A stretch of DNA of 64,000 nucleotides from Candidatus Omnitrophota bacterium (GCA_041650935.1 JBAZKH010000001.1:219337-283336), one strand, 5' to 3'; positions 7,178 to 62,778 are shown, counted from the stretch's first letter. Translations and numbers: made by a program. Notes: generated by a model not told the origin, from the sequence alone.

Positions 7178-7220
7178 GACGATTCTGCCGTCAGTTTGCA
7201 ATATCCCGAGGCCTATGGCC

Positions 7221-7475
7221 GAGGGGAAAATTTTTCGATGCAACATAGGAATGTGTTGTGTCAATGTGGCTCGCTTAGGACGCGAAATTTTCAGCCATGT
7301 GAAAATTTCGCTCGGTAAAATTTCTCGTACGCTGCCTCGAAATTTTAACGCCTTAGCTCACCACATCGCCACATCACATTCTCGCATATCGGAAAATTTA
7401 ACTGAAGAAACAGTAAACGCCGCTTTAACGCGGCCACAAAAAGTTCCCGCCATCTGAGGAACGAAAAATTTCACC
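7221..7475. repeat. MITE-like palindromic element, copy L (~255 bp; terminal inverted repeats gaggggaaaatttttcga / cgaaaaatttcacc)
   Basis: Internally self-complementary, e.g. ggaatgtgttgtgtcaatgtgg vs ccacatcgccacatcacattc and gcgaaattttcagccatgtgaaaatttcgc. Copy R is its reverse complement over ~170 nt. Carries periodic A4T3-5 tracts. Confidence 0.7.
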
Positions 7476-7507
7476 GATTGTTTACATCAAGGCGGAGTAA
7501 AAATACA

Positions 7508-8254
7508 ATGATGACTGATAACCAAAAACGAGAATTAACGGAAGAATACATTCTAGCCGCCTCTGATGTAAGAAAGTTAATTTCAGAAACAGCAACGTTC
7601 TGTCAGTCATTAAAACACGCTAAAGCTATCGATCATTGCAGGCATGGACTAACGAGAAGAATGTTTTTATTAACAAGATGCTTAGAGCAGTTCCTTAATA
7701 TTTCTCCTCCGCAAAGAACTGAGCATTTGAAAATGGAGGAGAAGTATGATTTAGATATATTTTTACATGCTTTTCTTATGAATATAAGTGGTGGAATTAA
7801 TAATTTGGCTTGGATTTTGTTTTATGAGAAGGGCGTGTGTGAAAAAGAAGATGAAAAGAGGTTTAAAAGAAATATAAATTTGTTTAATAAAGAATTTCAA
7901 CGATATTCGAACGAAACAATTATAAAAAAATGCGATGACTATAAAGATTGGCACAAGAATTTGACAAATTTTCGAGATCCGATAGCTCATCGTATTCCGC
8001 CTTATATTATCCCTTCCATAATGAATGATGCTGAAACAGAAAAACATCGAAAGTTATGGAATGACTTTTTCAAGACCAAAGATTTAGACAAGAGAAACAT
8101 TATTTTGAACGATATGGATAAAATAGGTGTTTATGAACCAACATATACACATTCTTATGTGGAAAAAAGTGATATAATATTTTTCCATCCGCGGAATATT
8201 TCAGATATCAAAATATTTAAAGATATCGTTGAAACAGTAATAAATAATTTTTAA
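7508..8254 (+). CDS. AT-rich hypothetical protein; possible HEPN/abortive-infection-like (Rx4H motif)
   Basis: ~248 aa. Much lower GC than its neighbours. Contains FRDPIAHR (R-x4-H, a HEPN-type motif). RBS GGAG precedes the ATG at 7508; the track start at 7478 is TTG. Tightly bracketed by the two MITE-like copies. Confidence 0.6.
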   Translation: MMTDNQKRELTEEYILAASDVRKLISETATFCQSLKHAKAIDHCRHGLTRRMFLLTRCLEQFLNISPPQRTEHLKMEEKYDLDIFLHAFLMNISGGINNLAWILFYEKGVCEKEDEKRFKRNINLFNKEFQRYSNETIIKKCDDYKDWHKNLTNFRDPIAHRIPPYIIPSIMNDAETEKHRKLWNDFFKTKDLDKRNIILNDMDKIGVYEPTYTHSYVEKSDIIFFHPRNISDIKIFKDIVETVINNF

Positions 8255-8292
8255 ATACCACCTTGGATTTTAGCGGGCATTAGTACTAGTTT

Positions 8293-8525
8293 GAGGGGGA
8301 AAATTTTTCGAGTCTAGTAGTAAGAATGTGATGTGGCGATCGTAGTTGGAAACCGAGGCGTTTGTGCCGAGCAGGGCCTTAAAAGTTCGAGGCAGCGTAC
8401 GAGAACTTTTACGGAGCGAATTTTTTGCATGGTCAAAAAATTCGCGTCCCGCGAGGTACAACGCCGATGGTTTCCGCGAACTACTCGACACAGCACATTC
8501 TTATGGTTTAGCGAAAAATTTTCTG
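8293..8525. repeat. MITE-like palindromic element, copy R (inverted relative to copy L)
   Basis: Starts gagggggaaaatttttcga and ends cgaaaaattttc. Shares agaatgtgatgtggcgat, cgaggcagcgtacgagaa and gcgaattttttgcatggtcaaaaaattcgc with the reverse complement of copy L. Confidence 0.7.
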
Positions 8526-8535
8526 AAGAGAGCCT

Positions 8536-12555: not shown

Positions 12556-12590
12556 TTTCCACCCCGGGGTGGAAATGTGATGTGGCGAAC
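12556..12590. repeat. 20-nt perfect palindrome tttccaccccggggtggaaa plus adjacent box tgtgatgtggcgaac (degenerate relative of the MITE-like element)
   Basis: The palindrome core ttccaccccggggtggaa recurs in-frame at 49395 and 50727. gtgatgtggcga recurs in both MITE copies. Downstream cgaaaaaatccgaac (12619) resembles the MITE terminal repeat. Confidence 0.55.
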
Positions 12591-17320: not shown

Positions 17321-19558
17321 ATGGATAAGACCAGGTGGAACGAGATCCAGGCAATATTACTCTTCGCTGTAGCCATCCTTATCTTTACCAGCCTGATCAC
17401 ATTCAGCTTTCAGGATTTGTCCGCGTTTACATCTAATCCAAACGTCCCGGTCAGGAATTTCGCCGGACTCTTCGGTGTATACATAGGCGCGGCCCTCTTC
17501 TTTCTTATGGGGCTGAGCTCGTACGTCATACCGCTTCTTGTTGTCAGCTGGGCTGTCGCCAGGCTCTATGGGATAACTCCGCAGAAGATTCTTTTCAAGC
17601 TCTTCGGGACACTCTTTCTTATACTTGCTTCCAGCTCGATATTTTCACTGATCGGGCGGGGCGATAATTCATTCAGGTTTTCGCTGGGCGGGATCGCCGG
17701 CCTGATATTTTCCGATTTTCTTGTAAAGTACCTGGGCAGGGGCGGCGCCATCCTTGTAATAGTCGTCCTATTCCTCCTCTCCGTATTACTGGCGACCGAA
17801 TTCCTGCTGCTGCCTTTCCTTGTCAATCTATTCTCAAGGATAAGAGGCAAAGGGCGGAACCTTGCCGGGATAGATCTTTTACCCGGCACAGCGTCTGCCG
17901 CAAGGTCAAGGGGCAAGGCCGCTGTTAACCTAACGGTCAAAAAGCCGGTTATGAAACTTCCTGTGGTGGAGGATAAGACAGCTGTGCGTGCCCCCGAAAA
18001 ACCCAGAGAGCGTGAACCGATAAAGATAGTATCGGCTGAGGAAAATAGGAAGGAGACCCCCAGCCGTTCGGCGAGCATCCGCGCCTCAGGTTCGGGGCAA
18101 ACGCCGGTCCAGGAGGTATTGAAGACGGATCCGAGCCGCTCGGGCGTATTTAATCTCCCTGGGATTGACCTGCTCGATACGCCGCCGCCAATAGAGACAA
18201 GGCGCATCAAGGACGATCTCGAAGGGAACGCGCGCATCCTCGAAGAGACGCTTATGGATTTCGATATCGAAGCGAAGGTCGTCGAGATAAATAAGGGCCC
18301 GGTTATAACGCGATATGAAATGGAGCCGGCGCCGGGGGTAAAGATACACAGGATAACGTCTTTAAGCGACAACATAGCGCTGGCGATGAAGGCCCAGTCC
18401 GTGAGAATCGTCGCTCCGGTGCCGGGTAAGGGCACGATCGGTTTCGAAGTCCCGAATTCCTCGAGCTCATTGGTATATTTGAAAGACGTCCTCGATTCGA
18501 AGGAGCACAGGGAGTCGAAATCGAAATTAAAACTCGCTCTCGGCAAAGATATCGCCGGTGCGTCCGTGATCGCGGATCTCGCGACGATGCCGCATCTTTT
18601 GATAGCGGGCGCCACGGGCTCAGGCAAGACGGTCTGCGTAAATACTATAATCACGACTCTCCTCTATAATTTGACTCCGGAAGAGGTCAAATTTATTATG
18701 ATAGATCCAAAAAGGGTCGAGCTTGCGGTATTTAACGATCTGCCGCATCTATTGTCACCGGTCGTGACGGATGCGAAGAAGGTGGCGAGCACGCTCGATT
18801 GGGTCGTCAGCGAGATGGATTCGCGGTATGAACTCTTCGCGAAGTCCGGAGTGAGGAATATCGATCTTTACAATGAAAAATTCGGGAAAGAGCCCAATAG
18901 CAAGCTTCCTTATATAGTTATAATCATAGATGAGCTGGCCGATCTTATGATGGTGGCGCAGGCGGATGTTGAGGGCGCCATAACGAGGCTAGCCCAGCTT
19001 TCGCGCGCCGTCGGTATTCATATTATAATAGCCACCCAGCGCCCGTCCGTTGACGTAATTACCGGCGTCATCAAGGCCAATTTCCCGGCGAGGATATCTT
19101 TCAAGGTCGCTTCCAAGGTCGATTCCCGAACGGTGCTCGATATAAACGGCGCGGACAAACTTCTCGGACGAGGGGACATGCTCTTCGTGGAGCCGGGCGC
19201 ATCGAAGCCGGTGAGAGCGCAGTGCAGCCTTATAAGCGATAAAGAGATCGAGAGGATAACGGGTTTCATAAAGGCGCAGCGCGGGCCGGAATATGTCAGC
19301 GGTATCCTGGATGTCCAGAAGAAGACCAGTTTCAAGAAGTTCGAAAAGGACGAGGTCTACGAAGAGGCGGTGAAGCTTATACTCGAATCCCGCCAGGCTT
19401 CCGTTTCCGTCCTTCAGCGGCGCCTCGGGCTCGGTTACACCAGGGCCGCGCGTCTCATAGATATGATGGAAGATGAGGGGCTCGTAGGGCCTTATCAGGG
19501 CTCCAAGCCAAGGGATATACTTGTATCCGTAGAGGAATACCAGACGAAGAATGGCTAA
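17321..19558 (+). CDS. ftsK: DNA translocase FtsK
   Basis: N-terminal TM helices, linker, then the FtsK/SpoIIIE motor with Walker A GATGSGKT and a C-terminal gamma wHTH. Confidence 0.95.
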   Translation: MDKTRWNEIQAILLFAVAILIFTSLITFSFQDLSAFTSNPNVPVRNFAGLFGVYIGAALFFLMGLSSYVIPLLVVSWAVARLYGITPQKILFKLFGTLFLILASSSIFSLIGRGDNSFRFSLGGIAGLIFSDFLVKYLGRGGAILVIVVLFLLSVLLATEFLLLPFLVNLFSRIRGKGRNLAGIDLLPGTASAARSRGKAAVNLTVKKPVMKLPVVEDKTAVRAPEKPREREPIKIVSAEENRKETPSRSASIRASGSGQTPVQEVLKTDPSRSGVFNLPGIDLLDTPPPIETRRIKDDLEGNARILEETLMDFDIEAKVVEINKGPVITRYEMEPAPGVKIHRITSLSDNIALAMKAQSVRIVAPVPGKGTIGFEVPNSSSSLVYLKDVLDSKEHRESKSKLKLALGKDIAGASVIADLATMPHLLIAGATGSGKTVCVNTIITTLLYNLTPEEVKFIMIDPKRVELAVFNDLPHLLSPVVTDAKKVASTLDWVVSEMDSRYELFAKSGVRNIDLYNEKFGKEPNSKLPYIVIIIDELADLMMVAQADVEGAITRLAQLSRAVGIHIIIATQRPSVDVITGVIKANFPARISFKVASKVDSRTVLDINGADKLLGRGDMLFVEPGASKPVRAQCSLISDKEIERITGFIKAQRGPEYVSGILDVQKKTSFKKFEKDEVYEEAVKLILESRQASVSVLQRRLGLGYTRAARLIDMMEDEGLVGPYQGSKPRDILVSVEEYQTKNG

Positions 19559-21718: not shown

Positions 21719-22305
21719 ACCTTCCGAATAAACTTACGCTTTCGAGAATAGCGCTGACCTTTGTCTTTATGGCGTTTTTGTATACAAACGGCGTGACGGC
21801 GAAGGTCTTCGCGCTGTGCGCGTTCGTGCTTGCGGCGCTGACCGATGCTCTTGACGGATATATTGCCAAAAAAATAAACCAGGTAACGGATTTTGGACGG
21901 CTCATGGATCCGATAGCGGACAAGATACTGGTCCTGGCCGCACTCCTGGCCTTTGTCGAGCGCGGAATCGTACCGGCATGGATGGTTGTCCTGATAATCT
22001 TCAGAGAAGTGGCGGTTACGGGCCTGCGCATACTGGCCCTCACAAAGGGCAGGGTCCTGCAGGCGGACGGGGGAGGCAAACATAAGACCGTTTGGCAGCT
22101 CTCGACAATAATAATAATACTATTCTTTTTCATATTCAAGGAGGGCGGGCACGCTCTCTTTAATTTCTGGAACACAAAGGTCGAAACCATTTACAAAGAC
22201 GGCATATTCGTTATAATGTTGATAGCGGTTGTTTTGACCTTGTCCAGCGGGATAGCTTATCTTGTAAAAAATAGGGAGGTCTATTCCAATGAAGAGACGG
22301 ATTAA
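21715..22305 (+). CDS. pgsA: CDP-diacylglycerol--glycerol-3-phosphate 3-phosphatidyltransferase
   Basis: CDP-alcohol phosphatidyltransferase motif DALDGYIAKK...GRLMDPIADK. Confidence 0.85.
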   Translation: MNLPNKLTLSRIALTFVFMAFLYTNGVTAKVFALCAFVLAALTDALDGYIAKKINQVTDFGRLMDPIADKILVLAALLAFVERGIVPAWMVVLIIFREVAVTGLRILALTKGRVLQADGGGKHKTVWQLSTIIIILFFFIFKEGGHALFNFWNTKVETIYKDGIFVIMLIAVVLTLSSGIAYLVKNREVYSNEETD

Positions 22306-22741
22306 ATTTATCACAAGCTTCTTTTACCTGGGACATTCCCGCTTCATGCCGGGGACGATGGGCTCTCTGGGCGGATTGGTTATCTATTTCCTCGTGAGGA
22401 ATAACGAACTGCTCTATGGTTTTTCCATACTCTTCCTATTCGTGCTGGGCATAATGTTTTCCGGCGAAGCGGAGAAGATCTACAAAAGAAAAGATGCAAA
22501 GATGATAGTGATAGACGAAGCATGCGGAATGCTTCTTAGCCTTTTCTTCGTGCCCATGAGCCCATATTCCGTGATCCTCGGGTTCTTTATCTTCCGTCTC
22601 CTCGATATCCTGAAGCCGCCGCCTGCCAGAAGGATGGAGCGGTTGACGGGATCTCTCGGTGTGATGTTCGACGATATCGTAGCGGCGATATATACAAATC
22701 TTTTCTTACAGGTACTATTCAGGCTCCTGGTCAAGGTTTAA
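22289..22741 (+). CDS. pgpA: phosphatidylglycerophosphatase A
   Basis: PgpA family: GHSRFMPGTMGSLGG...VIDEACGML. Confidence 0.8.
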   Translation: MKRRIKFITSFFYLGHSRFMPGTMGSLGGLVIYFLVRNNELLYGFSILFLFVLGIMFSGEAEKIYKRKDAKMIVIDEACGMLLSLFFVPMSPYSVILGFFIFRLLDILKPPPARRMERLTGSLGVMFDDIVAAIYTNLFLQVLFRLLVKV

Positions 22742-22758: not shown

Positions 22759-22787
22759 TTGCAAATTTGATAAATTGCGTGTATAAT
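22759..22787 (+). promoter_or_regulatory. near-consensus sigma-70 promoter (TTGCAA-17-TATAAT)
   Basis: -35 at 22759-22764, -10 at 22782-22787, followed by an AGGAGG RBS (22803-22808) 12 nt before the ATG. Confidence 0.6.
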
Positions 22788-22820
22788 ATTTGATATACAA
22801 GTAGGAGGTTCGAGCGATAT

Positions 22821-23006
22821 ATGAAGAAACTAAAACGGTGTGATGGATTCTTGGGATGCAGGACGAGTAAGGCGATAGAAGAGAAGATAAAGGCCCTCTG
22901 CACGGAGAATAATAGAGAGGTGAGCGAAGTCATCAATTATATGTGCAGGATATTTATCGAGGATTTCAGCGGGATACGAACTAAGTTCTTTAAGCGCGAA
23001 GAATAA
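22821..23006 (+). CDS. small hypothetical protein (61 aa; possible ribbon-helix-helix-like regulator)
   Basis: Consensus promoter and strong RBS. Predicted beta-strand followed by two helices (KAIEEKIKALCTENN / REVSEVINYMCRIF). Immediately upstream of the giant ORF. Confidence 0.45.
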   Translation: MKKLKRCDGFLGCRTSKAIEEKIKALCTENNREVSEVINYMCRIFIEDFSGIRTKFFKREE

Positions 23007-23036
23007 TTAAAATATAAAAAAGTTAGTTATGTTTCC

Positions 23037-23065
23037 TTGACTCACCCTAGCTAATATGATACTAT
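23037..23065 (+). promoter_or_regulatory. candidate promoter (TTGACT-17-TACTAT) for the giant-ORF leader
   Basis: By eye, upstream of the leader hairpins. Confidence 0.3.
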
Positions 23066-23143
23066 TACAGTACATATTTTCTAGGATCCCCGTTTGAGTT
23101 TAACTCGGGGGAGTCGAGGGTCTTAAGAAGAGAAACCATGCTT

Positions 23144-23167
23144 TTGCCGGGTGAATTCACCCGGCAA
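23144..23167 (+). promoter_or_regulatory. 24-nt perfect palindrome ttgccgggtgaattcacccggcaa in the giant-ORF leader (copy 1)
   Basis: Nearly identical to the palindrome that immediately follows the giant ORF stop codon (52192-52220). Confidence 0.6.
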
Positions 23168-23184
23168 GATGTAAGGTTTTTATA

Positions 23185-23233
23185 GACCAGATAGCCTAGA
23201 ATTGACGCTTGGCAATCTGGTCTTTTTCTTTTT
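23185..23233 (+). terminator. intrinsic-terminator-like hairpin (agaccagat...atctggtct + T-run) between the small ORF and the giant ORF
   Basis: 9-bp stem with a 21-nt loop followed by tttttcttttt; it lies in the 5' leader, so it could be a terminator or an attenuator. Confidence 0.55.
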
Positions 23234-23261
23234 GTGTGTTAAGAGAACAAAATAGATAGGA

Positions 23262-26200
23262 ATGATGAAAGCCGAAGAAGTCTTGCCAAAATTGAGCCAT
23301 CACAGGTTACCTTTTGCGGTCAGGATAATTGCGTCGATCCTGGTCGTCACTTTCCTTGCCCAGGATATCGTCTGGGCCCATCCGGATCCATTCGTAGATC
23401 AATCCGCGCAGAATAACACGCTTGCTCCCAGCACATTCTTTAAGCTGAAAGATTCAAAAGATAGAGGCGGCGCGCTCTTCGTCGAGTATCTTATAGAAAG
23501 GCATCCTAAATTTCATTCAAATATATCTCTAATAGCGATACAACATATACTTGAAGATAAGGATATACTCGCCTGGTTTGATGAAAATAAGATCACATGC
23601 AAGCCGGATTATGCTAACGGCGGCCAGTTGGGTGCGATAAGCATAAATATTCCGACAGGATACACGTTTCGTTATTATGATCCTGATTTTGACCGGGAAA
23701 ATTCATTTACTTGCGATCCGCAGAGCGTAATAGATTCAAAAGAGCTCAATCCTCGCCTGCATAAGCAGATCATAAGAGCGGGAGACAAGACAGCGACGCC
23801 GACAGCACAGGCGCAGCCAGAAGGACCCCCAGCCACATTGGCTACTCCCCTGACCCGCGAAAAGGCGATAACTCATTATACGGATAAGATGGGAGGATAC
23901 ACATGGGACAATCTCGGCGCAAAGGCGCAGGAGTCCCTGATTGCTAAATACTCTGCTTTAAGAGAGATATTTCATGTATTCGATCCGGTATGGTTCTTAA
24001 GGCAGCATATCAACAGGAGTTGGAAGGAAGAACTTGCGCATAGCTTAGGCATAATAGCCATATGGGCGGGCATGGCGCTCTCTTTTGTCATAATGACTAT
24101 CTTAACTTCCTCGTTCCTCGATATAGCCTATATTAATGCCGTACCTTACGCTTACCCCATAGCGGTTCCGATAGCGCTTCTTGCCGACTGGCTGATCCAT
24201 AGGGCCTGCGATATGCTGGTCATCAACTATAGCGTCGCGCTTTCACGAGGCCCAGACCAGTACGATTTCACCAACATAGTCGATGCGGAGACGCTCTCCA
24301 ATTTTGTCGATAAACTTCAGGAGAGCCAGACGTATGACTACGGAGAGTATGACAGCAGATTCCTACGGCCGCTATTCGAGCTTTTATTCACGAAACTCAG
24401 ACAGGATTTTTCAGGTTCGGAATATTTTATAGCGGAATGCAGAAAAGTGCTTGCCGAAAAAGACTCGTATGAGTTAAGGCGCATGATGAGCGGAGCATTT
24501 TTAAAATCTTTCGAAAAAATTACACAGAAACCCGGCACTGAAAAAGCCTCGGTCGGGTTCTACGGGATGCTCTTTTATTATCTTACGCGCCGCCCGCGCC
24601 CGTACTTTGGGCATCTATACCGCACCTTCATTATTACAAGGCCGGAAGCGCAGCTGGCATTCGGAAAACGCGGCAGGTCGTATTATAGCCGCGGGGAGAG
24701 CGCGGCCAGTTATTACCGTAAGGGGTTTCTGTACGGGCAGTATGAGAATCCGTATTTTACCTCTTCCATACATATGTATGAAACTACATCCCGCGCCGAC
24801 AGGCGGAATACCAAAAATGCGCTGAAGATCCAAAAAGCTTTAGCGATATGGCAGGCGGAGGCAAACCGGCGTGACGATTGGCGCATGCGCCGGCGTATAA
24901 ATAATTTCATAAATAGAACAACCGTCCTCGAGATCGATGTCAAGACAAGCTTGTTTTTCTCGGATCCGGAAAATAACGTAGTGCGTCTTATCCATGCGGA
25001 AGGACGGCGATGCGCGCTGAACCTGCCCGCGCCTTACCTCGCCAGGCTCAGACTTGACAGCGAAAATGACGATGATATGAGAGAACTTGCTACCTACCTG
25101 AATTTCGGGCAGGAGCTTATCGACATATCCGGCAGGGTGATAAAGATGGAAGCCGGCAGTGAAATGGATCGGGAAGCCCGGACCATTGCTACCGTCTCTT
25201 TCCTGAATAATACGAAAGATCATTTTGTAAGTACCGATCGTTTACGCAGGAACCTGGCTGCCTTCATGGAAGAAGATACCATGTCTATCTACACGGACCT
25301 GGCCCGCGAACGGTTTGACAGGGAAAAGGAAGCAGAGTCCTCTTTAAAGGCGGGCATAAAGGGCGGGGAGAGGGAGCAGTTTGCTCGCGCAAGAGACATC
25401 TATAGCCGGTTGATGTACCGCTATGATGGCGCGGGTATGTACTCGAAAGCGCAGGAGTCCTGTGACCATATGTTTTCCGCCACAGAAGGGGCGATACTTC
25501 ATGACAGGGGTGTTCTTACCTGCCCGTATTCCATAGAGAATTTATTTACAGCGCTTCGTTTTGGGCGCCGTGATGAGTTCTTGTCGGGCTTGAGGACCGT
25601 AACTACGGGAAGAGGACTGCCGCGTTATATCGAAAGAAGGGAGGTGGAGATCTTTAAGACCATGCTTTCGCCTTCGAACGAAAAGCGCAATTCATTCCAG
25701 GATGATGTGCTGGAGACCCTATCCGCGCAGGCTGAGGCTATGGATATCGAGAAAACCGGCTCGTTTATGGAGTCTGCCAAGTCTATCCTACATAATTATT
25801 TTGGAAAGAAGATAGATGATAGATTCGGCGATCTGGAGCCGTATGAAATAGAGTACCCTGATTTGTACTATAGCGCGGAAAAACCCGTCATATCTATCAT
25901 TAGCGGCGGACATTACATATCGGGCGAAGAAGTAACAAGAAACGCCGGCATTATAATAGACGCGGTGAGGAGGAGAGTGCCGGCTTCAAGCGGCAGGGAT
26001 TATCTTTCCGGCGGAGGGATAAGGGAAATTATAAATTCTGTCTCCGGGAGATTGGATGCCCACAGGTCCGGATTTTTGCCGAAAGAAAGGGAACTTTTGC
26101 AAACCGCGCTCAAGAGCCTCCGGGTCCTCAATATAACAGAACTGAATTCAATAACGCTTCATAGCGAAAAATCTCCGGCATGCCCCGACTTATGGATGTT

Positions 26201-29200
26201 TGGACTTAATACAAGCCTGCCTTATCATACAAAAGCCGATTTGGATGAATTGCCGGCCGCGCTCAATAGGGATATCCGGGAAGAATTTCCGAATACGCTC
26301 CTTCTATCCTCCGACATACTAGATAGTATCGAGAATGATAAAGCGCTTTTACATGAATATATCTTATGCGTACTTCTTTTATCGCATGTCGACCAGGCGA
26401 CATCCAGATATTTACGCGCGGCCCTATTTCCAGAGAACCAGCGGGACGTAAAAGCACAGGTTTTGAGGCGGGGTGAAAAGTTTCAGACATTGAACAATGT
26501 GCGCATGCTGGAGCAAATTTTCGGAAATCGCATCGCTTCCGAAGAACCGTCTTCCGATGGGCCCATTCTTACTACTCCAAAGACCCGCGAAAAGGCCATA
26601 GCTTATTACACGCGTAAGATGGGCGAAAGGGAATGGAACAGGCTAACCAGTGTGGACCAGGAGCTCTCGATCGGCAAGTATGCCGCACGAAGGGAGATAT
26701 TCCATCTATTCAATCCTATATGGTTTTTTAGACAGCATCCGAATACGTCATGGAAAGAAGAATTGATCCGCGGGTTGGGCATTATAGCTATATGGGCAGG
26801 CATGACGCTATCTTTTGTCATCGTGACTGCCATAACTTCCTTACTCCTCGATATATCGTATAGCAGTGCCGTACCTTACGCGTATCCCATAGCAGTTCCA
26901 ATAGCGCTTCTTGTTAACTGGCTGATCCACAGGACTTACAATATTCTTGCCGTAAAACATAAATTCGCGATGCTCGCTGCGGGAGACGGGTCCGAATCCG
27001 ACAAGCTACCAAGCGCTACCGACGCGGAGAGAAAGAAGGCTCTTGATGCCAGGCTGGCCGCCGCGTTGCGCAAACTCTTCTTCAAAGATAGCCGGGCTAT
27101 GACGGCTCTGGAAGCAGGACTTCCTCATTTCAGCAAAAAAGAGCGGGGGAGAGATACGGCTATATCTCTCTTAGGTATTATCGCCGCCGGCTGGTCTGCC
27201 GAAGCGAAGGATCTCATATTAAAGTGGACGGGGATGGAGGAAGGCGGGCTCGTCCCTAACGTTATCCGCCATGATAATAATCCGCAGGACGATGCGCTAT
27301 ATGCCGCGCCTCCGCCTACATCGGACGCCGCATTGTGGCTCGTTGAGGCCGTCCATAAATATATCGAAAAGTCCGGCGACAGGGCGATGCTCGATTGCGT
27401 AGTCGACAATAAAGGTAAGAAGGTTATCGACGTCCTGCGTAATATTTATAATCGATATTCGACGCCGGGTGGCAGTGATAGTGTGGTCTGTAGTGATCCG
27501 GCTACAGGTTTTGTGTGGGTCCGCAAGAAGACCACCTGGATGGATACGGATAGTACCGAACGGCAGGGATATCCTGTCGAGATCCAGGCGTTATGGTATA
27601 ACGCCCTGAACAAGATGTGCTCCCTCGACAAATCCGTCGCGGCGGAATATAAGAGTCTGGCGGATAAGGTGAAATCGAATTTCCATGAATATTTCTGGAA
27701 TAGCGCGGAAAGTACTGTGTTCGATATTCTGGGCGCGGACGGTTTTGAAACGGCAGCAGAGTCTAAGGACAGAAACAGGCGCGATCCGGCAGTGAGATGT
27801 AACCAGATATTTACGGTATACTTCGGGCTGGCCGAAGGTGCGGACGCAAAGCGGATACTTGAATCGACGAAGAGGCGGCTGCTTGTGCCGGGCGGGCTCA
27901 AGACGCTGGCGGCTCCGGAAAGGATCTATGTGCAGGATACCAGGGACGATGGCGCAAGGGCGAAAGATGAGGCCGAGGGCAGGGTTATAGGCTGGCCGCA
28001 TGCCGTATATTACAAATATTACGATAGCAATAAGTCGGCGGATGACAGGAATAAGGCCTACCATAACGGGACGGCGTGGCCGTGGCTCTACCCGTTCTAC
28101 TGGGCGGCGGCCGTAAAGTGCGGGTCCGAGGCGAAGGATACCTCGGTAGATACTATGGTCAAGGAGTATCTAGAATTGATGAGCGACCCGTGGACCGGAG
28201 GAAACGCTTCGTCTGGAGGAAGCTTGCCGGAACTCCTGGACGCGGAAGCTTCACCCGCGCCGGATGGCAGGACGAAACACTATCCAAAAGGCTGCGGAGA
28301 GCAAGCGTGGAGCATAGCGTGCGCCATCTGGGGGCTTGACGAGCTTTCACCCGCGCCGGTTCAGCCGGGCCGGTTTACTAACGGGGACAATCCTAAGACA
28401 AAGAGGAGCGGGATACGTTATTGCCGTTTCAAATCCGATAAGATAGGCATATCACCAATAGATGCGCTAATGGGTATATCTCAGACAGCCGTATTGACGC
28501 CTGAGACCCGGAAAGATTTTTCGGATATTGTCAGAAAAGTTAAAGCCGGTATTAATGACAGAGAGGCAAACGGCCCTATCGATGAGGATGCATCGGATTT
28601 CCTAGATGAATTAATAGAGGAAGGCAGGGTTCGTGCTGCGCAAATGGACTTCGAAGCTATCTATCTGGACGATATCCTCTATATAGATGAAGGTCTTCTC
28701 GCGGATGATAAAGAGGATGAGCTGGTCAAGTGTCTGCGTGAAGCGGTCAGGACCTCTGCCAGGTCCGGCAAACTTATTATCGAGGTCGATGCCCATGGCC
28801 TGGCTAATGCTTTCGGGACGACGATCGATAATATCCCCGATATTATTATGGACGGAGGCCTGGGAGATATCCCGGCGAAGATTATCCGGAGTAGCGATAA
28901 AGCCCCCGGTGTCCTTCACCTTAACCCCGGATATTTGCATTGTGACCACAGGTTGATAAAGGATATATGGGACTGGTTTGCGTTTGAATTAGGCGCGGAT
29001 ACCGTCTGGTTGAAGGGTGTTTGGGAGGAGAGTATGCTATCCCGGGCCATGGCGAAAGAGTGGCATAGGCTTGATGTGGCGGCGGGCAGGGATAGTCCCC
29101 ATGCCAAGAGAGAGAATGGAAGCAGGTATGATGTCTATAACTACATGGTCGATAAAAGGCTTATCGGATCCGGTAATGGAGCCGCCAATACCAATGAGGC

Positions 29201-47200: not shown

Positions 47201-50200
47201 GGCCGATAGCAAACTTATCAAAGGATGGCTGCTGGGATTTAATACCCTGCCCAGGGCTCCCGATGCCGCAGGTGATGAACATTTAACCGCCCTCCAGAAA
47301 CGCCTCTCAATGCAGGGGAAACTATCCAATACTATAGGTCTCGCAACCCAGGCCCTCGATTATATCGGATGCGATGAGTCTCTCCTCCAGGAGTATCTAT
47401 TCCATGAATTTTTCTGCCCATATTTGGGTCATGAGCGGACAAGGATCACGCAAGAAGAGATATTCAAAGAAAATTATCCGCAAGGCTCTTCCACTGCCAT
47501 TGGGCTCGATACCCGCCCGGGCCACAAAGACGGCGAACTGTCGGCGGTATTGCAATTGGTTATAAGCGCTATGCATGATGGAGTGCCGGGGTCCCGGCCC
47601 GGATGGTATAGGAAAAAGAGCGGCCATACATATCTCATGAGGCCGCTATATCCCGAAAAAGCTGTTTCAAGGGCGAAGTTATTGGACCCCGCGGATGTAA
47701 GGATAGACCTGGGGAGCATAAGAAAATATATGGATGAACTTATGCGGAGCGGTAAAAGATTTATTGTCGTGACTTCGCCTCATGTTGTCGAACAGATGAG
47801 GGTTTGGGGATTCCCTTACTATAAGGAATTGCGCAAGAAAAGCATTCTTGTGAAATCCGTGCACTATAAATACATGGACGGGCGGTTGGGGCGTTACGTG
47901 AAAGACGCTCTTAAGATCGAAGACCGCCCGGATGTGATATTGGGGATAGGCATGGGATCCGTATCGGACTGGTCGAAGATCATGGGGCATAAATTTTCCT
48001 GTGATGTTACGTTGATCCCCAGCGCTCTTTCGACGAACGCGCCGTTTTCCGCGAATGTGGCCGTGCGCGATGAGAATAAGGACGGCGGGGAGTTCGGTGT
48101 ATATGGATGGCCTGCGGGCGCCGCGCGCACCGTTTGCGTCGACAGCAGTTTCATCTCCATGAACTGCCGCGGAAACCTGTCCGGAGCGGGGGATCTTATC
48201 AGCTGCTGGACGGCGCTTCTTGACTGGAGGTTTGCCTATGAACACGGCGCTGAGCCGAAGGATCCGGAAAGGGATAAGGTGTTTAAAGAGGCATTGGAGC
48301 ATCTTAACGAGCTAGCCGATACAGCCCCCCGCATCAACGCGAATACTCCCGATGGTATTGAGACGGCCGCGAGGCTTAATGCCAAAGTTTCCAGGCTGAT
48401 GACTAAGTTCGGTTCGGGCAGGCCCAAAGCCGGCAGTGAGCATATACTGTCGGATACTCTTGAAAGGGTGACCAGGCCCAGGAAGATACTTCATGGCGAG
48501 CAGGTGGGCGTATCGACTCTTATAATGATGTATCTCTATAGCAAAATTTACCGGCGAAAAGGCGGGAGATACCCGAAAAATGTTGATGTTAAAGATCTCT
48601 TTAAATTAGTTAAGGCCATGGGGATATCTTTGGACCTGGAAAGGATAGGGCTTACGAAAGATGATCTGGAAGAGGCGCTCATTTCCGCAGAACCCAGGCC
48701 GGGAAGATTTTCCTATTTCGATGTGAATAAAGTTACCCGCGAAGAAGCCCTCGAAGCCGTAAACGCGATCTTCCCGGATAAACCGGCTAGGCCTGCCGCG
48801 GCGGTAAACCCGGCCGCCAAAATTACCCGTCGTTCACTGACCCGGCCAGTGGATGGAGCGGATAACAAGGTTTCCGGGGCCTCTACGGTTGAGGTGACTG
48901 CGGAGGACCTTATGGGTTGGGAGAACGATGTCAGGGACAGGCTGGCGTATCTTAACGACAAGATCGGAGGCTTGGAAGATACGATAGGGATGCGCAAATC
49001 TGATGAGGTGAATCTCTCCCCGTTTAAGCGGGATGAGTATGATTATTACCCGCTTCATACGATAGAAAAACTTATCGATATTAAAGCGAAGTTTGAAGAG
49101 GAGCTCCGATGGGCGCGGAGATTTGAGCAGGTTATTCAGGCCGCCGCGCCGCGATCTTATGACTGGACCGCAGGTCCTGAAGTGACACGCGCGTATCCCG
49201 TATGGGCGCTCGGTAAATTCAATCCAAGATTAAGGAGGGCCTTTATACATTGGGGTATTATAACGGTCGGAGATTTAGTGAACCGGACACCCAAAGATAT
49301 TGTCTCTGCCTGGGATTGCGACAAAGGAATGCTTAAAGAGTTGCAAGCCAGGCTTAGCGAACGCGGCCTTGCGTTAAGAGAGGATCCGGTTAGTTTCCAC
49401 CCCGGGGTGGAAGATTCGAGCAGGGTGCCTCAAAATGGGACGTCTACGGGAATACTTTGGAATAATATCTGTCTTTTGGGTTATAATCCGCCGGAATATC
49501 CGGACGACAAGCCTCTAATTGTTACGGAAAAAGATTCATTGAACGCGGTTCGTGATTTCTTTACACGCGAAAATGGAAAAAATGCCACTTTTATTCTGTA
49601 TGATATTTTTAAAGAAGATATAAATCTCAACTCCATCCGTTCAATAACTGCATCGGGATGTCAGGCCGGATGGTTCTACCAGGTATATCGAGCCGCTATT
49701 GAATTGAATGACGGCAGGAGAGGAGTTGTTATTTTACAACTTCCAGCAAGGTATGGCGACAGAAACGAGCTTATCGCCACAGATTATAATAATTTACAGC
49801 ATCTGTATCGACTCCATCCGGGTATCGTAGTGCGTCCAATTTGTATTTCCGAAAGCCGTACAGGCAGAGACGATGGGACTTCTGCGCTTAATATTATTGC
49901 TGCCGAATGTTTAAGCGAATATATGGAACTCAATCCACGCCAATATTCGCCTTATGCTGTAGTGTCCCCTTATTATGGTTTCGAGCTTAATGCTTTCAGG
50001 CGAAGAGAGCCTGCCGCGCAATATCAGCTTGACGCCGATCGTCAGAATTCAGAAAACGTATTGAAAGGACTTGTAAAGAATATGGTTATTCTGGCGGACA
50101 TAAATCTCGAGACAGAAGCGGTAAGCTTTGTAAGTCAGATAGACATTGGCGCCGGTGATTTTATGGTAAGGCCGCGTGTTGACGGACAATTTGACGCTAA

Positions 50201-52186: not shown

Positions 52187-52225
52187 ATTTTCTTGCCGGG
52201 TGAAAATTTCACCCGGCAAGAAAAT
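52187..52225 (+). terminator. 39-nt perfect palindrome immediately after the giant ORF stop (attttcttgccgggtgaaaatttcacccggcaagaaaat); likely bidirectional terminator
   Basis: Core cttgccgggtga...tcacccggcaag is identical to the leader palindrome at 23144-23167; convergent with thpR on the - strand. Confidence 0.6.
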
Positions 52226-52316
52226 ATTCAAATTTGGTGCCCGGGCAACCGGGATAAGGGAAGCCTTTCCCCCGAGTTAGGCGACCTTTATCCCGACCCG
52301 GGCGCTGTTTTTGTGT

Positions 52317-52895
52317 TTAGCAGGTGAATTTTGTTTCGTAGAGTTTTGTGTAGACCGGACCGGCGGGTGTCAGTTTACTGCGGAATAATATGACAGACTT
52401 TATTATTTCTTGCCCCTTGACCTTGCCGGGAAAGATCTCCTGGCCGGCAACGTCTCTTTCCCGGCAAGATTTCGCTTTCTCTTTCAACGCTTGTTTATTC
52501 TTCGGCGAACGGACGCGGCCGATAGTCAGGTGGGCGGTAAATGCCCTGGTCTCTTCCTGAAATCCCAGTTTTGACAGGCTTAGGTCTATCTTCTTCGCAA
52601 GCTCGGTCGATTCTTTTGCGCCTTTGTCTAAACCCACCCAGATCACCCTCGGGAACATGCCGATATCCTTTAATGAAATTTCGAACGGTTGTGTATCTTT
52701 TGCGATTGTATCGAGCGCCACCTTTACATCCGCGCACAGCTTTTCGTCGATCTCGCCCAGGAATTTTAAAGTGAGATGGATATTGTTCTTCTCGACCCAT
52801 TTGACGTCGGCGCCGGCGTATTTTAAGTGAGATTGGACCTGCGCGAGGGAATCTTTAATCTCTTCGGAGAGTTCGATGGCTATAAAAGTACGCAT
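52317..52895 (-). CDS. thpR: RNA 2',3'-cyclic phosphodiesterase (2H phosphoesterase, LigT/ThpR)
   Basis: Two H-x-T-x motifs (IHLTLKFLGE and AHLTIGRV), ~190 aa. Confidence 0.85.
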   Translation of the reverse strand: MRTFIAIELSEEIKDSLAQVQSHLKYAGADVKWVEKNNIHLTLKFLGEIDEKLCADVKVALDTIAKDTQPFEISLKDIGMFPRVIWVGLDKGAKESTELAKKIDLSLSKLGFQEETRAFTAHLTIGRVRSPKNKQALKEKAKSCRERDVAGQEIFPGKVKGQEIIKSVILFRSKLTPAGPVYTKLYETKFTC

Positions 52896-55448: not shown

Positions 55449-55925
55449 TTGGAAAATAGTAAAATCAAAAAGAGGGCTCTAAATAATGCCTATGCGCTCC
55501 TGCGGCAGAGGCCGAGGAGCGAATTCGAGATACGCAGCCGCCTCAAGCTAAAAGGGTATAACGGTGAGGTAGTCGATCTTGTCGTAGAGGATCTGAGACG
55601 TCTCGGTGAGATCGACGACGCGAGATTTGCCAAGCTCTGGGTCGACAACCGTATGCACCTGAACCCGGTCGGCGATGTCATTCTCCGTCATGAGCTGAAG
55701 GCTAAGGGCGTAAACGAGGCGATAATCGAGGCCGCATTGGCAAAGAAGGCCGGTGAGTATGATGAGTACGGCCTGGCGCTTAATATGGCCCGCGAGCAAT
55801 TCGGCCGGTTCAAGAAACTGGATCGTAAGAAGGCATTGAAGCGGGTGTATGATTTTCTGCTCAGGCGCGGATTCAAATTCGAGACGGTGCAAAAGATTGT
55901 GGAAGATGTCGTAGGGGACGTTTAA
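55449..55925 (+). CDS. recX: regulatory protein RecX
   Basis: RecX repeat family immediately after recA; TTG start; stop codon embedded in hairpin ggggacgtttaaacgtcccc. Confidence 0.8.
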   Translation: MENSKIKKRALNNAYALLRQRPRSEFEIRSRLKLKGYNGEVVDLVVEDLRRLGEIDDARFAKLWVDNRMHLNPVGDVILRHELKAKGVNEAIIEAALAKKAGEYDEYGLALNMAREQFGRFKKLDRKKALKRVYDFLLRRGFKFETVQKIVEDVVGDV

Positions 55926-55950
55926 ACGTCCCCTACGATGTGGATAACTT
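55915..55950. repeat. 36-nt intergenic unit: perfect-palindrome hairpin ggggacgtttaaacgtcccc + tacgatgtggataactt (contains the TGTGGATAA 9-mer, the reverse complement of the DnaA box TTATCCACA)
   Basis: A near-identical copy lies at 58513-58550 after alaS; a variant lies at 62726-62765. Confidence 0.7.
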
Positions 55951-55951
55951 T

Positions 55952-58513
55952 ATGCGAACGGATGAAATACGACAATCATTCCTGGAGTTTTTCAAATCGA
56001 AGGGCCACGCTATAGTGCCGAGCGATTCGCTCGTGCCTAGGGACGACCCGACGCTTCTCTTTACCGGCGCCGGTATGAACCAGTTCAAGGAGAAGTTTCT
56101 CGGCCGCAACGTTACTTATCGCAGGGCGGCGTCGAGCCAGAAATGCCTGCGGACGGGCGATCTCGATAATGTCGGCAGGACGAGCGGCCATCATACTTTC
56201 TTCGAGATGCTCGGTAACTTCTCTTTCGGCGATTACTTCAAGAAAGAGGCGATCGGCTGGGCGTGGGAATATTTTACGCGGGTCCTGCGGATCGATCCGG
56301 ATAGATTATGGGCCTCTGTCTACAAAGATGATAAAGAGGCGTATGGCATCTGGAGGGATACGATAAAGATCGCCGAAAACAGGATTATGAAGTTCGGGGA
56401 GAAGGATAATTTCTGGCCGTCCGAAGCTCCGACAAAGGGCCCCAACGGGCCGTGCGGGCCATGTTCAGAGATATTTTACGATTACGGCAAGGATGTCGGC
56501 TGTGGTAAGGCGGGGTGTACCCCAGCCTGCGATTGCGGCAGGTTCGTTGAAGTGTGGAACATGGTATTTACGCAGTTCGATAGGCAGTCCGACGGTACAT
56601 TGAAGCCGCTCCCGGCTAAGAATATCGATACCGGCATGGGGCTCGAGCGCCTCGCTTCGGTGATGCAGGGTGTTAAGACTAATTTCGAGATAGATATATT
56701 CGCGGCGCTGGCGAGTGAGATAGAAAAGATAGCGGGTCACCAGTTACCAGTTGCCAGTCACCAGTCTAAGGTAAATGCCATTGCCGACCATATCCGCGCG
56801 GTGACGTTCTGTATAGCCGACGGTGTAATGCCGTCGAATGAGGAACGCGGATATGTCGTAAGGAAGCTGATCCGCCGGGCGATGCTGCATGGCCGCGACA
56901 TCGGGATCGAAAAACCCGCGTTCTATAAACTCGTCGGTGTCGTAGCCGATGTCATGAAAGGGCAGTACCCGGAGATGAAGCCGCGGCACGAGGAGATAGC
57001 GCAGATAGTAAAGCGGGAGGAAGAGCTCTTTTTGAACGTGGTGGCCACGCAGCTTCCCAGGGTCGAGGAGGCGTTTGCCCAGGTTTCGGGCAGGGGCAAG
57101 ATCGATAAGGCGGATGTGGCAGCGCTTGCGTTCAATTTTTACGATACGTACGGGATGCCATACGACCTGCTGGAAGATATTGCCGAAAAACTTAAATTGA
57201 TAATAGATAAAGATGCCTTCGAAGGATTGCTGGAGAAACAGCGCGAGCAGTCCCGCTCCAGGACGAAGATAAAAGGCGAGATATTCTCCGAGACGTTTGC
57301 TAAAAGAGTCGAGGCGCTGGGACTTAAAACGGAATTTTTAGGATATGAGAAGGCGCACGCCGAGGCCAAGGTCGTCGCGGTGCTCGAAGGCGGCGAAGTG
57401 ATACTCGACAGGACGCCGTTCTACGGCGAGTCGGGCGGGCAGGCCGGCGACTGGGGTCGTATCGAGACGCCGTCGGGTGCCATGGAGGTCGAGGATGCGA
57501 AGAAGATTGCCTATACGATAGTCCATATCGGCAAGGTTCTTCGCGGCAAGATCGTGAAGGGCGAAACGGCAAAAGTTTCGATAGATGAAGGTGTCCGTAA
57601 AAAAGTAGCGGCCAATCATACAGCGACGCATCTTTTACAGGCTGCGTTAAGAAAAGTTTTAGGCGAGCACGTCCATCAGACGGGTTCATTAGTAGACAGC
57701 GGGCACTTAAGGTTCGATTTTACCCACATGAAGAAGATGGAAGAGCGTGAGGTCGCGCGCGTCGAGGAGCTTGTCAATGAGTGGATAAAAGCCGGCCACG
57801 CCGTTTCGAAGAAGATAGAGAATCTCGAATCTGCCAGGGGCGAAGGTGCGATGGCATTATTCGGCGAGAAATATGAGGAAAAGGTGCGCGTCGTAACCGT
57901 AAAAGATATCTCGAAGGAGCTTTGCGGCGGCACGCACGTCGACAATACGCGGGATATAGGGATATTTAAGATTACAAGCGAAAGCTCGATCGCCTCCGGG
58001 GTGCGCAGGATAGAAGCGTTTACCGGCGCCGGCGCGGATAAGTGGATGGAAAGACAGCGTGAAATCCAAAATTCAAAAATAAAAGCCGAAAAAGAGAAAG
58101 CGGAAGAACGGAAGATGATGACGGCGCGTCTTGAAGAAGCCTCTGCCGGTATCGATGGGATACTGGCCGGGGCAAAAGCCGCCGGCGGCGCGAAGATTAT
58201 AGTAAAGAGACTCGAGGGTATGAATATCGAGAGCCTCCGGGTTTTGGCGGACAGGATAAAAACTAAAGAAGGTTCGGCGGTTATTATTCTTGCTACAACA
58301 GGTGACGATAAGGTATCTTTCATAGTCTCGGTTAGCGAGGGCTTGTCCAAAAAAGGTTTAAGCGCCGGTGCGCTTGCTAAAGAGCTTGCTGTGTTGATAG
58401 GCGGCTCGGGCGGCGGTAAGCCGCTCTTTGCGCAGGGCGGCGGTAAGGATGCTGCCGGCCTTGAGAAAGCGCTGGAGCAGATAAGAGACAGTATCGCGAA
58501 TAAGCAAACGTAG
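55952..58513 (+). CDS. alaS: alanine--tRNA ligase
   Basis: Class II aaRS motifs (FEMLGNFSFGDYFK), editing domain HxxxH/CxxxH (HTATHLL...CGGTHV) and C-terminal DHHA1-like; ATG at 55952 preferred over the GTG at 55940. Confidence 0.95.
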   Translation: MRTDEIRQSFLEFFKSKGHAIVPSDSLVPRDDPTLLFTGAGMNQFKEKFLGRNVTYRRAASSQKCLRTGDLDNVGRTSGHHTFFEMLGNFSFGDYFKKEAIGWAWEYFTRVLRIDPDRLWASVYKDDKEAYGIWRDTIKIAENRIMKFGEKDNFWPSEAPTKGPNGPCGPCSEIFYDYGKDVGCGKAGCTPACDCGRFVEVWNMVFTQFDRQSDGTLKPLPAKNIDTGMGLERLASVMQGVKTNFEIDIFAALASEIEKIAGHQLPVASHQSKVNAIADHIRAVTFCIADGVMPSNEERGYVVRKLIRRAMLHGRDIGIEKPAFYKLVGVVADVMKGQYPEMKPRHEEIAQIVKREEELFLNVVATQLPRVEEAFAQVSGRGKIDKADVAALAFNFYDTYGMPYDLLEDIAEKLKLIIDKDAFEGLLEKQREQSRSRTKIKGEIFSETFAKRVEALGLKTEFLGYEKAHAEAKVVAVLEGGEVILDRTPFYGESGGQAGDWGRIETPSGAMEVEDAKKIAYTIVHIGKVLRGKIVKGETAKVSIDEGVRKKVAANHTATHLLQAALRKVLGEHVHQTGSLVDSGHLRFDFTHMKKMEEREVARVEELVNEWIKAGHAVSKKIENLESARGEGAMALFGEKYEEKVRVVTVKDISKELCGGTHVDNTRDIGIFKITSESSIASGVRRIEAFTGAGADKWMERQREIQNSKIKAEKEKAEERKMMTARLEEASAGIDGILAGAKAAGGAKIIVKRLEGMNIESLRVLADRIKTKEGSAVIILATTGDDKVSFIVSVSEGLSKKGLSAGALAKELAVLIGGSGGGKPLFAQGGGKDAAGLEKALEQIRDSIANKQT

Positions 58514-58550
58514 GGGACGTTTAAACATCCCCTGCGTTGTGGATAACTTC
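58513..58550. repeat. second copy of the hairpin + TGTGGATAACTT unit (ggggacgtttaaacatcccc-tgcgttgtggataactt)
   Basis: Direct repeat of 55915-55950 with 3 mismatches; overlaps the alaS stop codon and precedes the hisD RBS. Confidence 0.7.
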
Positions 58551-59784: not shown

Positions 59785-59888
59785 ATTCGAAATACGAATA
59801 TCTAAATTCTAAACAAATACGAATTTTGATTAGAATTTGTTTAGGATTTCGGATTTAGAATTTCGAAATTACATCGGGAGAATACGAT
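59785..59888. promoter_or_regulatory. 104-nt AT-rich imperfect palindromic spacer between hisD and hisB, bounded by AAATTCGAAAT / AATTTCGAAATT
   Basis: The left half (aaattcgaaatacgaatatctaaattctaaacaaat) is roughly reverse-complementary to the right half (atttgtttaggatttcggatttagaatttcgaaatt). Confidence 0.45.
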
Positions 59889-62719: not shown

Positions 62720-62725
62720 AAGACA

Positions 62726-62765
62726 GTACTTCACGCTTAAGGGTGAAGTACGTTGTGGATAACTT
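62726..62765. repeat. variant hairpin (gtacttcac-gcttaagg-gtgaagtac) + gttgtggataactt box, third copy of the TGTGGATAACTT unit
   Basis: Same 14-nt box as at 55937-55950 and 58537-58550, positioned just before the hisI RBS. Confidence 0.6.
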
Positions 62766-62778
62766 TGTAAGGAGCGCT

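Follow-up and report, generated by a model that had tools for sequence, protein, structure and literature searches.

Leader terminators that are read through by processive antitermination are known from the HK022 put RNA, the B. subtilis EAR RNA and the LoaP leader hairpin. The analysis reported here concerns a stretch of 64 kb from Candidatus Omnitrophota bacterium (GCA_041650935.1, JBAZKH010000001.1:219337-283336; hereafter the window), in which the DNA in front of a giant open reading frame (ORF) of 9,640 aa is laid out much like put, EAR, LoaP and the conAn system of pLS20, that is, with a promoter, a conserved structured leader and a terminator-like hairpin followed by a very long unit. 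Unlike these systems, the locus has no sequence or Rfam similarity to them, lacks an antiterminator gene nearby and consists of one gene, not an operon; moreover, it is known from sequence alone. A second point of likeness lies at the far end of the unit. The stem of the pLS20 end-terminator TerR measures 15 bp as compared to the usual 7-9 bp, which makes it resist antitermination (PMC10325885). As in conAn/TerR, the very long unit of the window ends in a terminator with an unusually long stem, T2, with about 24 pairs as compared to the 15 bp of TerR (PMC10325885).

A first-pass annotation of the same DNA had pointed to a perfect hairpin shared by both ends of the giant ORF and suggested attenuation or antitermination control or, alternatively, punctuation of an inserted block by a repeat resembling repetitive extragenic palindromes (REP). 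The explanation favored here, with a probability of roughly 0.55, is that the leader acts as a read-through checkpoint (by attenuation or antitermination), and that the shared palindromes are passengers derived from an insertion element.

Leader, terminator-like hairpin and end-terminator

Since no homologue of the first 900 aa of the giant protein was detectable by a word-index protein search, PgpA and ThpR were used as anchors to reach relatives, i.e., related Omnitrophota loci found via PgpA or ThpR matches, the surrounding DNA of which was compared. The leader was followed through five lineages (the window, L014-16, L017-18, L019 and L025-27) and the 3' end through four sequences (the window, L028 from the same contig as L019, L030 and L031), while both ends of the gene were compared in the window and L019/L028 only.

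The leader promoter (23037-23065, plus strand), TTGACT-17-TACTAT with an extended TG before the -10 hexamer, is of the sigma-70 type; it had already been proposed in the first-pass annotation and was called by the promoter scan; its hexamers, the TG and the 17-nt spacing are kept in L014, L017, L019 and L025. The nhmmer profile and the fold predict a leader RNA of about 190 nt for the giant gene (23072-23261, plus strand, with an inferred start site). The profile, representing the five lineages, matched exactly one copy per locus, with E-values from 1e-33 to 1e-56, and had no match elsewhere in 475 kb of related loci. Compared to shuffled sequences, the fold of 23066-23261 had a z-score of -6.1. 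The five-lineage alignment is near-invariant from the inferred start (ACATATTTTCTAGGATCCC) to AACTCGGGGGAGTCGAGGGTCTTAAGAA, and its near-invariant columns define a conserved 5' domain (23079-23129, plus strand), in which TTCTAGGATCC, paired with GGGTCTTAAGAA, encloses the G-rich motif AACTCGGGGGAG (23102-23113), the latter with one occurrence per locus. Such a conserved leader RNA before a long unit, near-invariant in its 5' domain and present once per locus, is among the features that characterize processive antitermination. The 5' domain is followed by a hypervariable slot (see below) and the terminator-like hairpin H3 with its U-rich tail, after which come the conserved TGTTAAAAGAATAAAA, the ribosome-binding site and the ATG; an A-rich block, TGTTAAGAGAACAAAA (23237-23252, plus strand), is conserved between the U-run and the ribosome-binding site.

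H3 (23184-23233, plus strand) consists of a hairpin at 23184-23223, AGACCAGAT-A-GCC...GGC-A-ATCTGGTCT, and the U-run TTTTCTTTTT at 23224-23233. A stable stem with an immediate U-tract, as expected of an intrinsic terminator, recurs in the same layout in the five lineages, with the arms AGACCAGAnnGCCTAGA...GCTTGGCnnTCTGGTCT conserved and with energies of -14 to -19 kcal/mol ahead of a U-rich tail in 5 of 5. The earlier description of H3 as a classic intrinsic terminator before the start codon holds for the stem, the U-run and the energy (-19.4 kcal/mol in the window), but not for the loop, which is not compact and has a 14-nt apical region. As the latter exceeds the 8-nt loop limit of the simple terminator scan, H3 was missed by that scan. 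The distance from the U-run to the giant ATG is 28 nt, and throughout the lineages the promoter-to-H3 unit is located 28-45 nt 5' of the giant-ORF start. The sequences of the five lineages were also inspected by eye for a promoter between H3 and the ATG, and this possibility was rejected: the hexamer TTGGCA within H3 is not accompanied by a conserved -10 at a distance of 16-18 nt. With only 28 nt and no conserved -10 downstream of H3, no alternative promoter fits, and transcription of the giant ORF must therefore pass H3, as had been stated before. A pairing of the 5' UUCUAGG with the H3 loop CCUAGAA was also discarded, being possible in four lineages and broken in L017. The conserved alternative pairing with the terminator arm of H3 is limited to 5 bp (GGUCU/AGACC), its extension falling into the variable slot.

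T2 (52236-52318, plus strand) is formed by a hairpin of 71 nt (52236-52306, -46.4 kcal/mol) and a U-run (52308-52318), the hairpin being followed by TTTTTGTGTTT in the window. The same long hairpin with a U-run is present directly after the stop codons of L028, L030 and L031. Among the 24 consensus pairs of these four sequences, 10 changed on both sides; 90.6% of the cells were paired vs 27-60% with the partner slid, and the covariation score was reached by 0 of 500 shuffles. Owing to its pair number, covariation and U-run, T2 corresponds to the long end-terminator of processive antitermination, and by analogy it may also share the resistance. The apical loop of T2, TCCCCCGAGTTA (52268-52279), is complementary to the G-rich leader motif. 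Indeed, the loop consensus (C/U)UUCCCCCGAGUU(A/G)G is the reverse complement of that motif over 12 nt in the window and 10 nt in L019/L028, and loop and motif each occur once per locus. The T2 loop is also kept in L031, which was compared at the 3' end only.

The conserved promoter, leader RNA and terminator, together with the long end-terminator, probably govern how the giant gene is transcribed. Transcription starting at the leader promoter, as well as that reading in from a small ORF upstream (see below), would mostly stop at H3, and the giant ORF would be transcribed only when RNA polymerase reads through this hairpin. Most likely, the extent of read-through would be determined by a factor that acts on the conserved 5' domain, in the manner of processive antitermination, or else would be a fixed low-level leak; since there is no conserved leader peptide and the conserved alternative pairing is only 5 bp long, both are likelier than a riboswitch. 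The long stem of T2 would then stop even a termination-resistant polymerase.

Regarding known RNA families, a search of the whole window with Rfam 15 at gathering scores returned one tRNA only, and at permissive E-values the leader and the 3' end gave chance hairpin-like matches, the best with 12-19 bits vs thresholds of 43-130. A scan of viral contigs with the leader core resulted in two chance hits. In the literature searched on Omnitrophota giant genes, the terms terminator, promoter, hairpin and UTR (untranslated region) were all absent. Taken together, the leader and the end-terminator form a new candidate cis-regulatory RNA, the general kind of which is known.

The paired palindromes as copies of a short element

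H2, located in the leader, is a perfect palindrome of 24 nt, TTGCCGGGTGAATTCACCCGGCAA (TTGCCGGGTGAA|TTCACCCGGCAA), at 23144-23167 (-18.5 kcal/mol). Its counterpart H2', ATTTTCTTGCCGGGTGAAA-A-TTTCACCCGGCAAGAAAAT, is a perfect palindrome of 39 nt at 52187-52225 (-28.2 kcal/mol), placed between T2 and the TAA stop codon of the giant ORF (52182-52184) and beginning 3 nt past the latter, where it may slow translation termination. As RNA hairpins, the two would have at most a generic effect, for example the protection of the mRNA end. That the hairpins at both ends share a stem sequence is confirmed, with one correction: the common arm TTGCCGGGTGAA is identical over 12 nt, and not 11 nt. The 11-mer reported before is found exactly only at these two sites in the 64 kb. 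The likeness reaches upstream of the arms, both sites having AACCAT-N4-TTGCCGGGTGAA...TTCACCCGGCAAGA.

H2 occupies the hypervariable slot of the leader (23126-23183, plus strand), which comprises 14-59 nt in relatives, with differing hairpins or none. The fold energy of the slot is -31.2 kcal/mol in the window, -19.3 in L014, -6.3 in L025 and -3.5 in L019. The slot hairpins of L019 and L025 are weak and AT-rich, the 14-nt slot of L017 has no hairpin, and L014 carries a different, CCGGG-rich hairpin, which may be a diverged relative of H2. At the opposite end, H2' is absent from L028, L030 and L031; given the long hairpin and U-run directly after the stop codon in these sequences, with no palindrome, H2' is therefore an insertion of the window lineage. 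In L019/L028, the sole relative lineage compared in this respect, the own slot hairpin is not repeated after the own stop codon. The proposal of attenuation or antitermination stays reasonable as far as H3 and the promoter are concerned, which are conserved in five lineages, but the shared palindrome has to be removed from the device, since its slot is hypervariable and its twin is missing from the three other 3' ends. The palindrome pair is not a conserved device, and we infer that its two members are passengers within a conserved architecture.

H2 and H2' belong to a lineage-specific short palindromic element (family A), of which the 64-kb window alone contains at least four copies. The element, which is 26-47 bp long, has 9-bp termini, CTTGCCGGG...CCCGGCAAG, and an interior that varies. 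The 9-mer CTTGCCGGG has 8 exact occurrences in the window vs about 0.5 by chance on 128 kb (a rough estimate), and 47 hits with one mismatch vs 16 expected from shuffles. Six of the 8 exact hits form three inverted pairs, namely, H2 (one arm with T for C at the start; the complete element, tTTGCCGGG...CCCGGCAAG, spans 23143-23168), H2' and 52422-52468, and one more exact hit anchors an imperfect fourth pair at 17861-17889. The copy at 17861-17889, CTTGCCGGGATAGATCTTTTACCCGGCAC, lies in frame in the linker of ftsK as an 8-aa insertion absent from four relatives. The copy at 52422-52468, CTTGCCGGGAAAGA-19-TCTTTCCCGGCAAG, is in frame in thpR, a minus-strand gene, as an insertion of 9-12 aa that is likewise absent from four relatives. 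In related Omnitrophota the sites in ftsK, thpR and the 3' UTR are empty, the leader slot being variable instead. All four copies are located where insertions are tolerated, those in FtsK and ThpR in variable loops of the proteins. Exact scans for the palindrome pattern matched GTDB genomes 5 times and JGI metagenomes 6 times, each match being single-copy and located in an unrelated organism with unrelated flanks; the source genome is not part of the collections scanned. As only such hits were obtained, family A can be regarded as specific to this lineage. Overall, a count of perfect hairpins having 9 or more base pairs in the stem yielded 15 for the window, compared to 2.5 ± 1.6 in 30 dinucleotide shuffles. 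The identity of H2 and H2' is due to the common descent of element copies. Their bracketing of the gene, in turn, results from the fact that a 29-kb ORF without non-coding DNA turns the leader and the 3' UTR into neighboring insertion-tolerant sites.

Similar to REP and bacterial interspersed mosaic elements (BIME) of enterobacteria, the elements described here are short GC-rich palindromes in untranslated regions that are repeated in one genome and form stable RNA hairpins. Unlike REP/BIME, they are present in four copies in 64 kb, are conserved in their 9-bp termini alone and include two in-frame copies, and no transposase of the REP-associated tyrosine transposase type (RAYT, Y1) was seen among the window ORFs scanned. 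In 2015, Liang, Rudd and Deutscher reportedly found that a REP in the vicinity of a stop codon can influence the gene upstream of it, and REP so placed are reported to slow translation termination. The alternative of REP-like punctuation is partly supported: a small repeat family exists and has at least four members in the window, including two in-frame ones. The exact GTDB and JGI scans yielded only the 11 unrelated single-copy hits.

Rickettsia palindromic elements (RPE) are inserted between genes and also in frame in coding genes, to which they add a short peptide (PMC10969869). Family A resembles RPE and small miniature inverted-repeat transposable elements (MITE) in combining in-frame with intergenic insertion and in its presence or absence at the same sites in relatives (PMC10969869). 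It has terminal inverted repeats, empty sites in relatives and in-frame insertions (FtsK +8 aa, ThpR +9-12 aa), as is characteristic of both. Its differences from RPE are the length of 26-47 bp vs about 150 bp, the lack of a conserved encoded peptide and the occurrence in another phylum, the Omnitrophota. The target-site duplication and the size of 100-250 bp that are typical of MITE do not apply to such short copies, which have no visible flanking direct repeat.

Weighing of the explanations

Several observations speak against the checkpoint explanation. Termination at H3 and read-through beyond it are both events that we infer. H3 is less compact than a textbook terminator, with its 14-nt apical region in place of a loop of 3-8 nt and with an internal A-A mismatch. 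Its covariation is weak: only 1 of 13 pairs is compensatory and the others are invariant, and the support for H3 therefore comes from conservation and thermodynamics, not from covariation. No gene for an antiterminator protein of its own, as would be typical of processive antitermination, was found within the unit or beside it, NusG/KOW paralogues and other antiterminator genes being absent from the window ORFs and from the annotated genes of the relatives. Moreover, L023 and L020 have giant genes after pgpA without this leader, which is thus not obligatory. With respect to the passengers, neither a target-site duplication nor a transposase was seen for family A in the window. In view of the possibly related CCGGG-rich hairpin in the same slot of L014, the leader may have acquired its copy early, with the one at the 3' end arising from it later by duplication, and the identity of H2 and H2' may be maintained for a reason.

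A rival explanation is that the giant mRNA has ends which communicate by base pairing. Conserved motifs that are complementary to each other and located at opposite ends of a long RNA, here deduced from sequence, recall flavivirus cyclisation sequences and bacterial small RNAs derived from 3' UTRs; the C-rich loop in the terminator-proximal hairpin would be a possible seed. To our knowledge, bacterial mRNAs as long as this one have no described counterpart to such an end-to-end pairing of motifs. The leader motif AACUCGGGGGAG would pair with the T2 apical loop UCCCCCGAGUU, either by cyclisation, whereby the ends of the 29-kb mRNA recognize each other and, if the leader remains attached to a termination-resistant polymerase, the emerging 3' loop could strip it off and thereby permit termination, or through a 3'-derived small RNA that acts on the leader and feeds back on its terminator; in the window lineage, H2 and H2' would extend this pairing by 24 nt in the same antiparallel order. 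The complementarity is perfect over the 12 nt (window) and 10 nt (L019/L028) mentioned above, no part of the leader is better conserved than the motif, and the complement of the latter falls exactly into the apical loop of a covarying hairpin, both being single per locus. By chance, a loop of 12 nt and a leader of 190 nt would share a perfect match of 10 nt or more with a probability of about 5e-4 (a rough estimate). The motif precedes H2 at the 5' end and H2' precedes the loop at the 3' end, an order that is collinear, as an antiparallel duplex demands. However, motif and loop are almost invariant, so that no covariation can be demonstrated between them, the comparison comprises two paired lineages, and the leader motif may be partly sequestered in a local helix. 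In the duplex-energy test, the value of the window was reached by 1 of 300 shuffles only through H2; the 44 of 300 obtained without H2 and the 31 of 300 for L019/L028 are not significant, and these tests are not discriminating because long interior loops were allowed. Communication between the ends is, on balance, unlikely. We are similarly doubtful that the promoter-to-H3 segment represents an independent gene for a small RNA of about 155 nt with an efficient terminator at its end, its position before the giant ORF being incidental or the ORF being expressed only by leak. The conserved promoter and blocks and the terminator-like hairpin with its U-run do make a complete transcription unit, and a sequence conservation exceeding the structural covariation is expected of an RNA that acts by base pairing or protein binding. 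Nevertheless, in every lineage this unit stands 28-45 nt 5' of the giant start and is followed by the A-rich block and the ribosome-binding site, the ORF has no other visible promoter, and the 475 kb of related loci contain no copy elsewhere.

Other explanations concern the palindromes themselves. It seems very improbable that H2 and H2' are DNA operators of one dimeric regulator (the 61-aa protein encoded upstream or the sigma-70 region 4 of the giant protein) that would mark or loop the ends of the gene. Perfect palindromes with identical 12-bp half-sites would suit such a role, as would the adjoining conserved small ORF, whose product is possibly DNA-binding. Yet the spacing of the half-sites is not fixed: the centre between the 12-nt arms is 0 nt in H2 and 3 nt in H2', a difference of 3 bp, while the other members of the family have interiors of 12 and 29 bp and are located within coding regions. 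In addition, the small ORF is kept in relatives without the palindrome and has an invariant inverted repeat of its own at its own promoter. Attenuation by a leader peptide would depend on an upstream ORF of 15 codons (23138-23185, MLLPGEFTRQDVRFL) that runs through H2, with a ribosome at its stop codon blocking H3. Although this ORF exists and the geometry is right, with the stop codon overlapping the first bases of H3, its ribosome-binding site is weak, and there is no equivalent ORF in L014, L017, L019 and L025, the slot having no conserved ATG. The mechanism was dropped, since the upstream ORF occurs in the window lineage only, and we find it scarcely tenable. Finally, the hairpins could be att-like or transposon-end repeats bounding a horizontally inserted block of 29 kb. 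The identical repeats at both ends would agree with this, but the same gene order is present in at least five related lineages without the repeats, there is no break in composition, and no recombinase is encoded inside the block. As the order pgpA-(small ORF)-leader-giant ORF...thpR-cinA-recA is kept in relatives lacking the palindrome, the giant gene is ancestral at this position; the notion of hairpins marking an inserted block, put forward together with their discovery, therefore fails and retains almost no credibility.

Neighboring genes, other repeats and implications

In the window, the giant ORF (23262-52184, plus strand) is preceded by rodZ, a miaB/rimO-like gene, pgsA, pgpA (22289-22741) and the 61-aa ORF, from which it is separated by a gap of 255 nt. 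On its 3' side follow thpR and cinA, which are convergent, and then recA, recX, alaS and hisD. Four further lineages have pgpA, usually an ORF of 61-62 aa, a gap of 200-285 nt and a giant ORF of 2,400-10,700 aa, and in L028, L030 and L031 the giant ORF converges on thpR-cinA-recA. The Pfam domains of the giant protein include GDE_C, alpha-amylase, GH77, SF1 helicase, Fe-ADH, sigma-70 region 4 and GNAT. A module of about 120 aa with predicted membrane helices (TREKAI..YT.KMG...IIAIWAGM..SFVI...) is duplicated some 1,000 residues apart (residues ~200-330 and ~1180-1310; window 23262-27300). In the L014 lineage, the giant gene was called as separate ORFs of 2,431 aa and at least 3,350 aa. The 225-nt gap between them (L014 18075-18299) is coding-like, and a search for the hairpin element in it was negative; the split could be caused by a frameshift, recoding or an assembly error.

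The 61-aa ORF (22821-23006, plus strand) encodes a protein of no family with four invariant Cys. It is 87-90% identical across 5 lineages, exceeding the identity of PgpA. Its own promoter is located at 22759-22787, with the -10 overlapped by an invariant inverted repeat, TGTATA-N8-TATACA, at 22780-22799. This invariant 20-nt sequence upstream of the ORF, TGTATAATATTTGATATACA, looks like an autoregulatory operator. In the leader-carrying lineages the ORF has no terminator of its own. L023 has the ORF but not the conserved leader, and in L025 the leader is present and the ORF missing. Profile searches with the 61-aa protein vs PDB and NCBIfam returned nothing. Its AlphaFold model has an unstructured N-terminus followed by two helices, with a mean predicted local distance difference test score of 54, which is too low for a fold search. 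In L006/L007 (Logan contig SRR8542065_417681), which come from an independent assembly of the same organism, the sequence breaks 19 nt past the small ORF, just 5' of the leader promoter and the hairpins, and this break may have been induced by repeats at the palindromes.

Three other palindrome families were found in the window, some of them duplicated in adjacent intergenic regions (the alaS flanks; 7282/8416). A family of TTAA-centered hairpins, GTAGGGGACGTTTAAACGTCCCCTAC with covarying stems such as GTAGGTCACCCTTAAGGGTGACCTAC and, after 2-3 nt, TGTGGATAAC(TT), is present at 55909-55950, 58507-58550 and 62724-62766 in the window, at ~3800-3860 in L028(-), at ~4380-4450 in L020(-) and at 9189-9231 in L029. 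Its members usually lie just 5' of a ribosome-binding site and start codon (alaS, hisD and the gene at 62779), and TGTGGATAA within them is the reverse of a perfect DnaA-box 9-mer. Near-identical copies flank alaS, of which the upstream one is window-specific; the alaS-hisD copy is common to L028, where only the downstream copy is present, and its stem covaries. In cinA of L029, a copy of the family is in frame as a 9-aa insertion. The perfect palindrome TTCCACCCCGGGGTGGAA occurs three times in the window (12556-12575, 49395-49412 and 50727-50744): one copy is intergenic and followed by ATGTGATGTGGCGA, and two are in frame in the giant ORF, each encoding FHPGVE within the repeated motif SFHPGVED. 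A stretch of 1.36 kb (7178-8535) between an XerC/D-like integrase and a CCA-adding/poly(A)-polymerase-like gene contains an ORF with a TTG start (7478-8254) and no Pfam or NCBIfam match. The non-coding flanks of this ORF (~300 nt) have in common GGGGAAAATTTTTCGA, many GAAAATTT-type repeats and AATGTGATGTGGCGA (also in inverse orientation), and it is flanked by two alike hairpins with 12-bp stems (7282-7311 and 8416-8445). For the stretch as a whole, a degenerate mobile element and a large non-coding RNA are both conceivable. Between hisD and the next his gene, at 59782-59871, there is an imperfect, AT-rich inverted repeat, the arms of which measure 43 nt and are 77% complementary.

Few known bacterial genes are as long as the giant genes of Omnitrophota, and the question of how a cell transcribes at least 30 kb without premature termination, while keeping a costly product low, is not known to have been addressed. 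The conserved cassette and the end-terminator would provide a sequence-defined handle on antitermination or attenuation in this uncultured phylum. Very short palindromic elements located in frame in housekeeping genes would extend the RPE phenomenon to a new phylum and to a much smaller size. They also caution that a hairpin shared by both ends of a gene is, in these genomes, not necessarily a sign of regulation.

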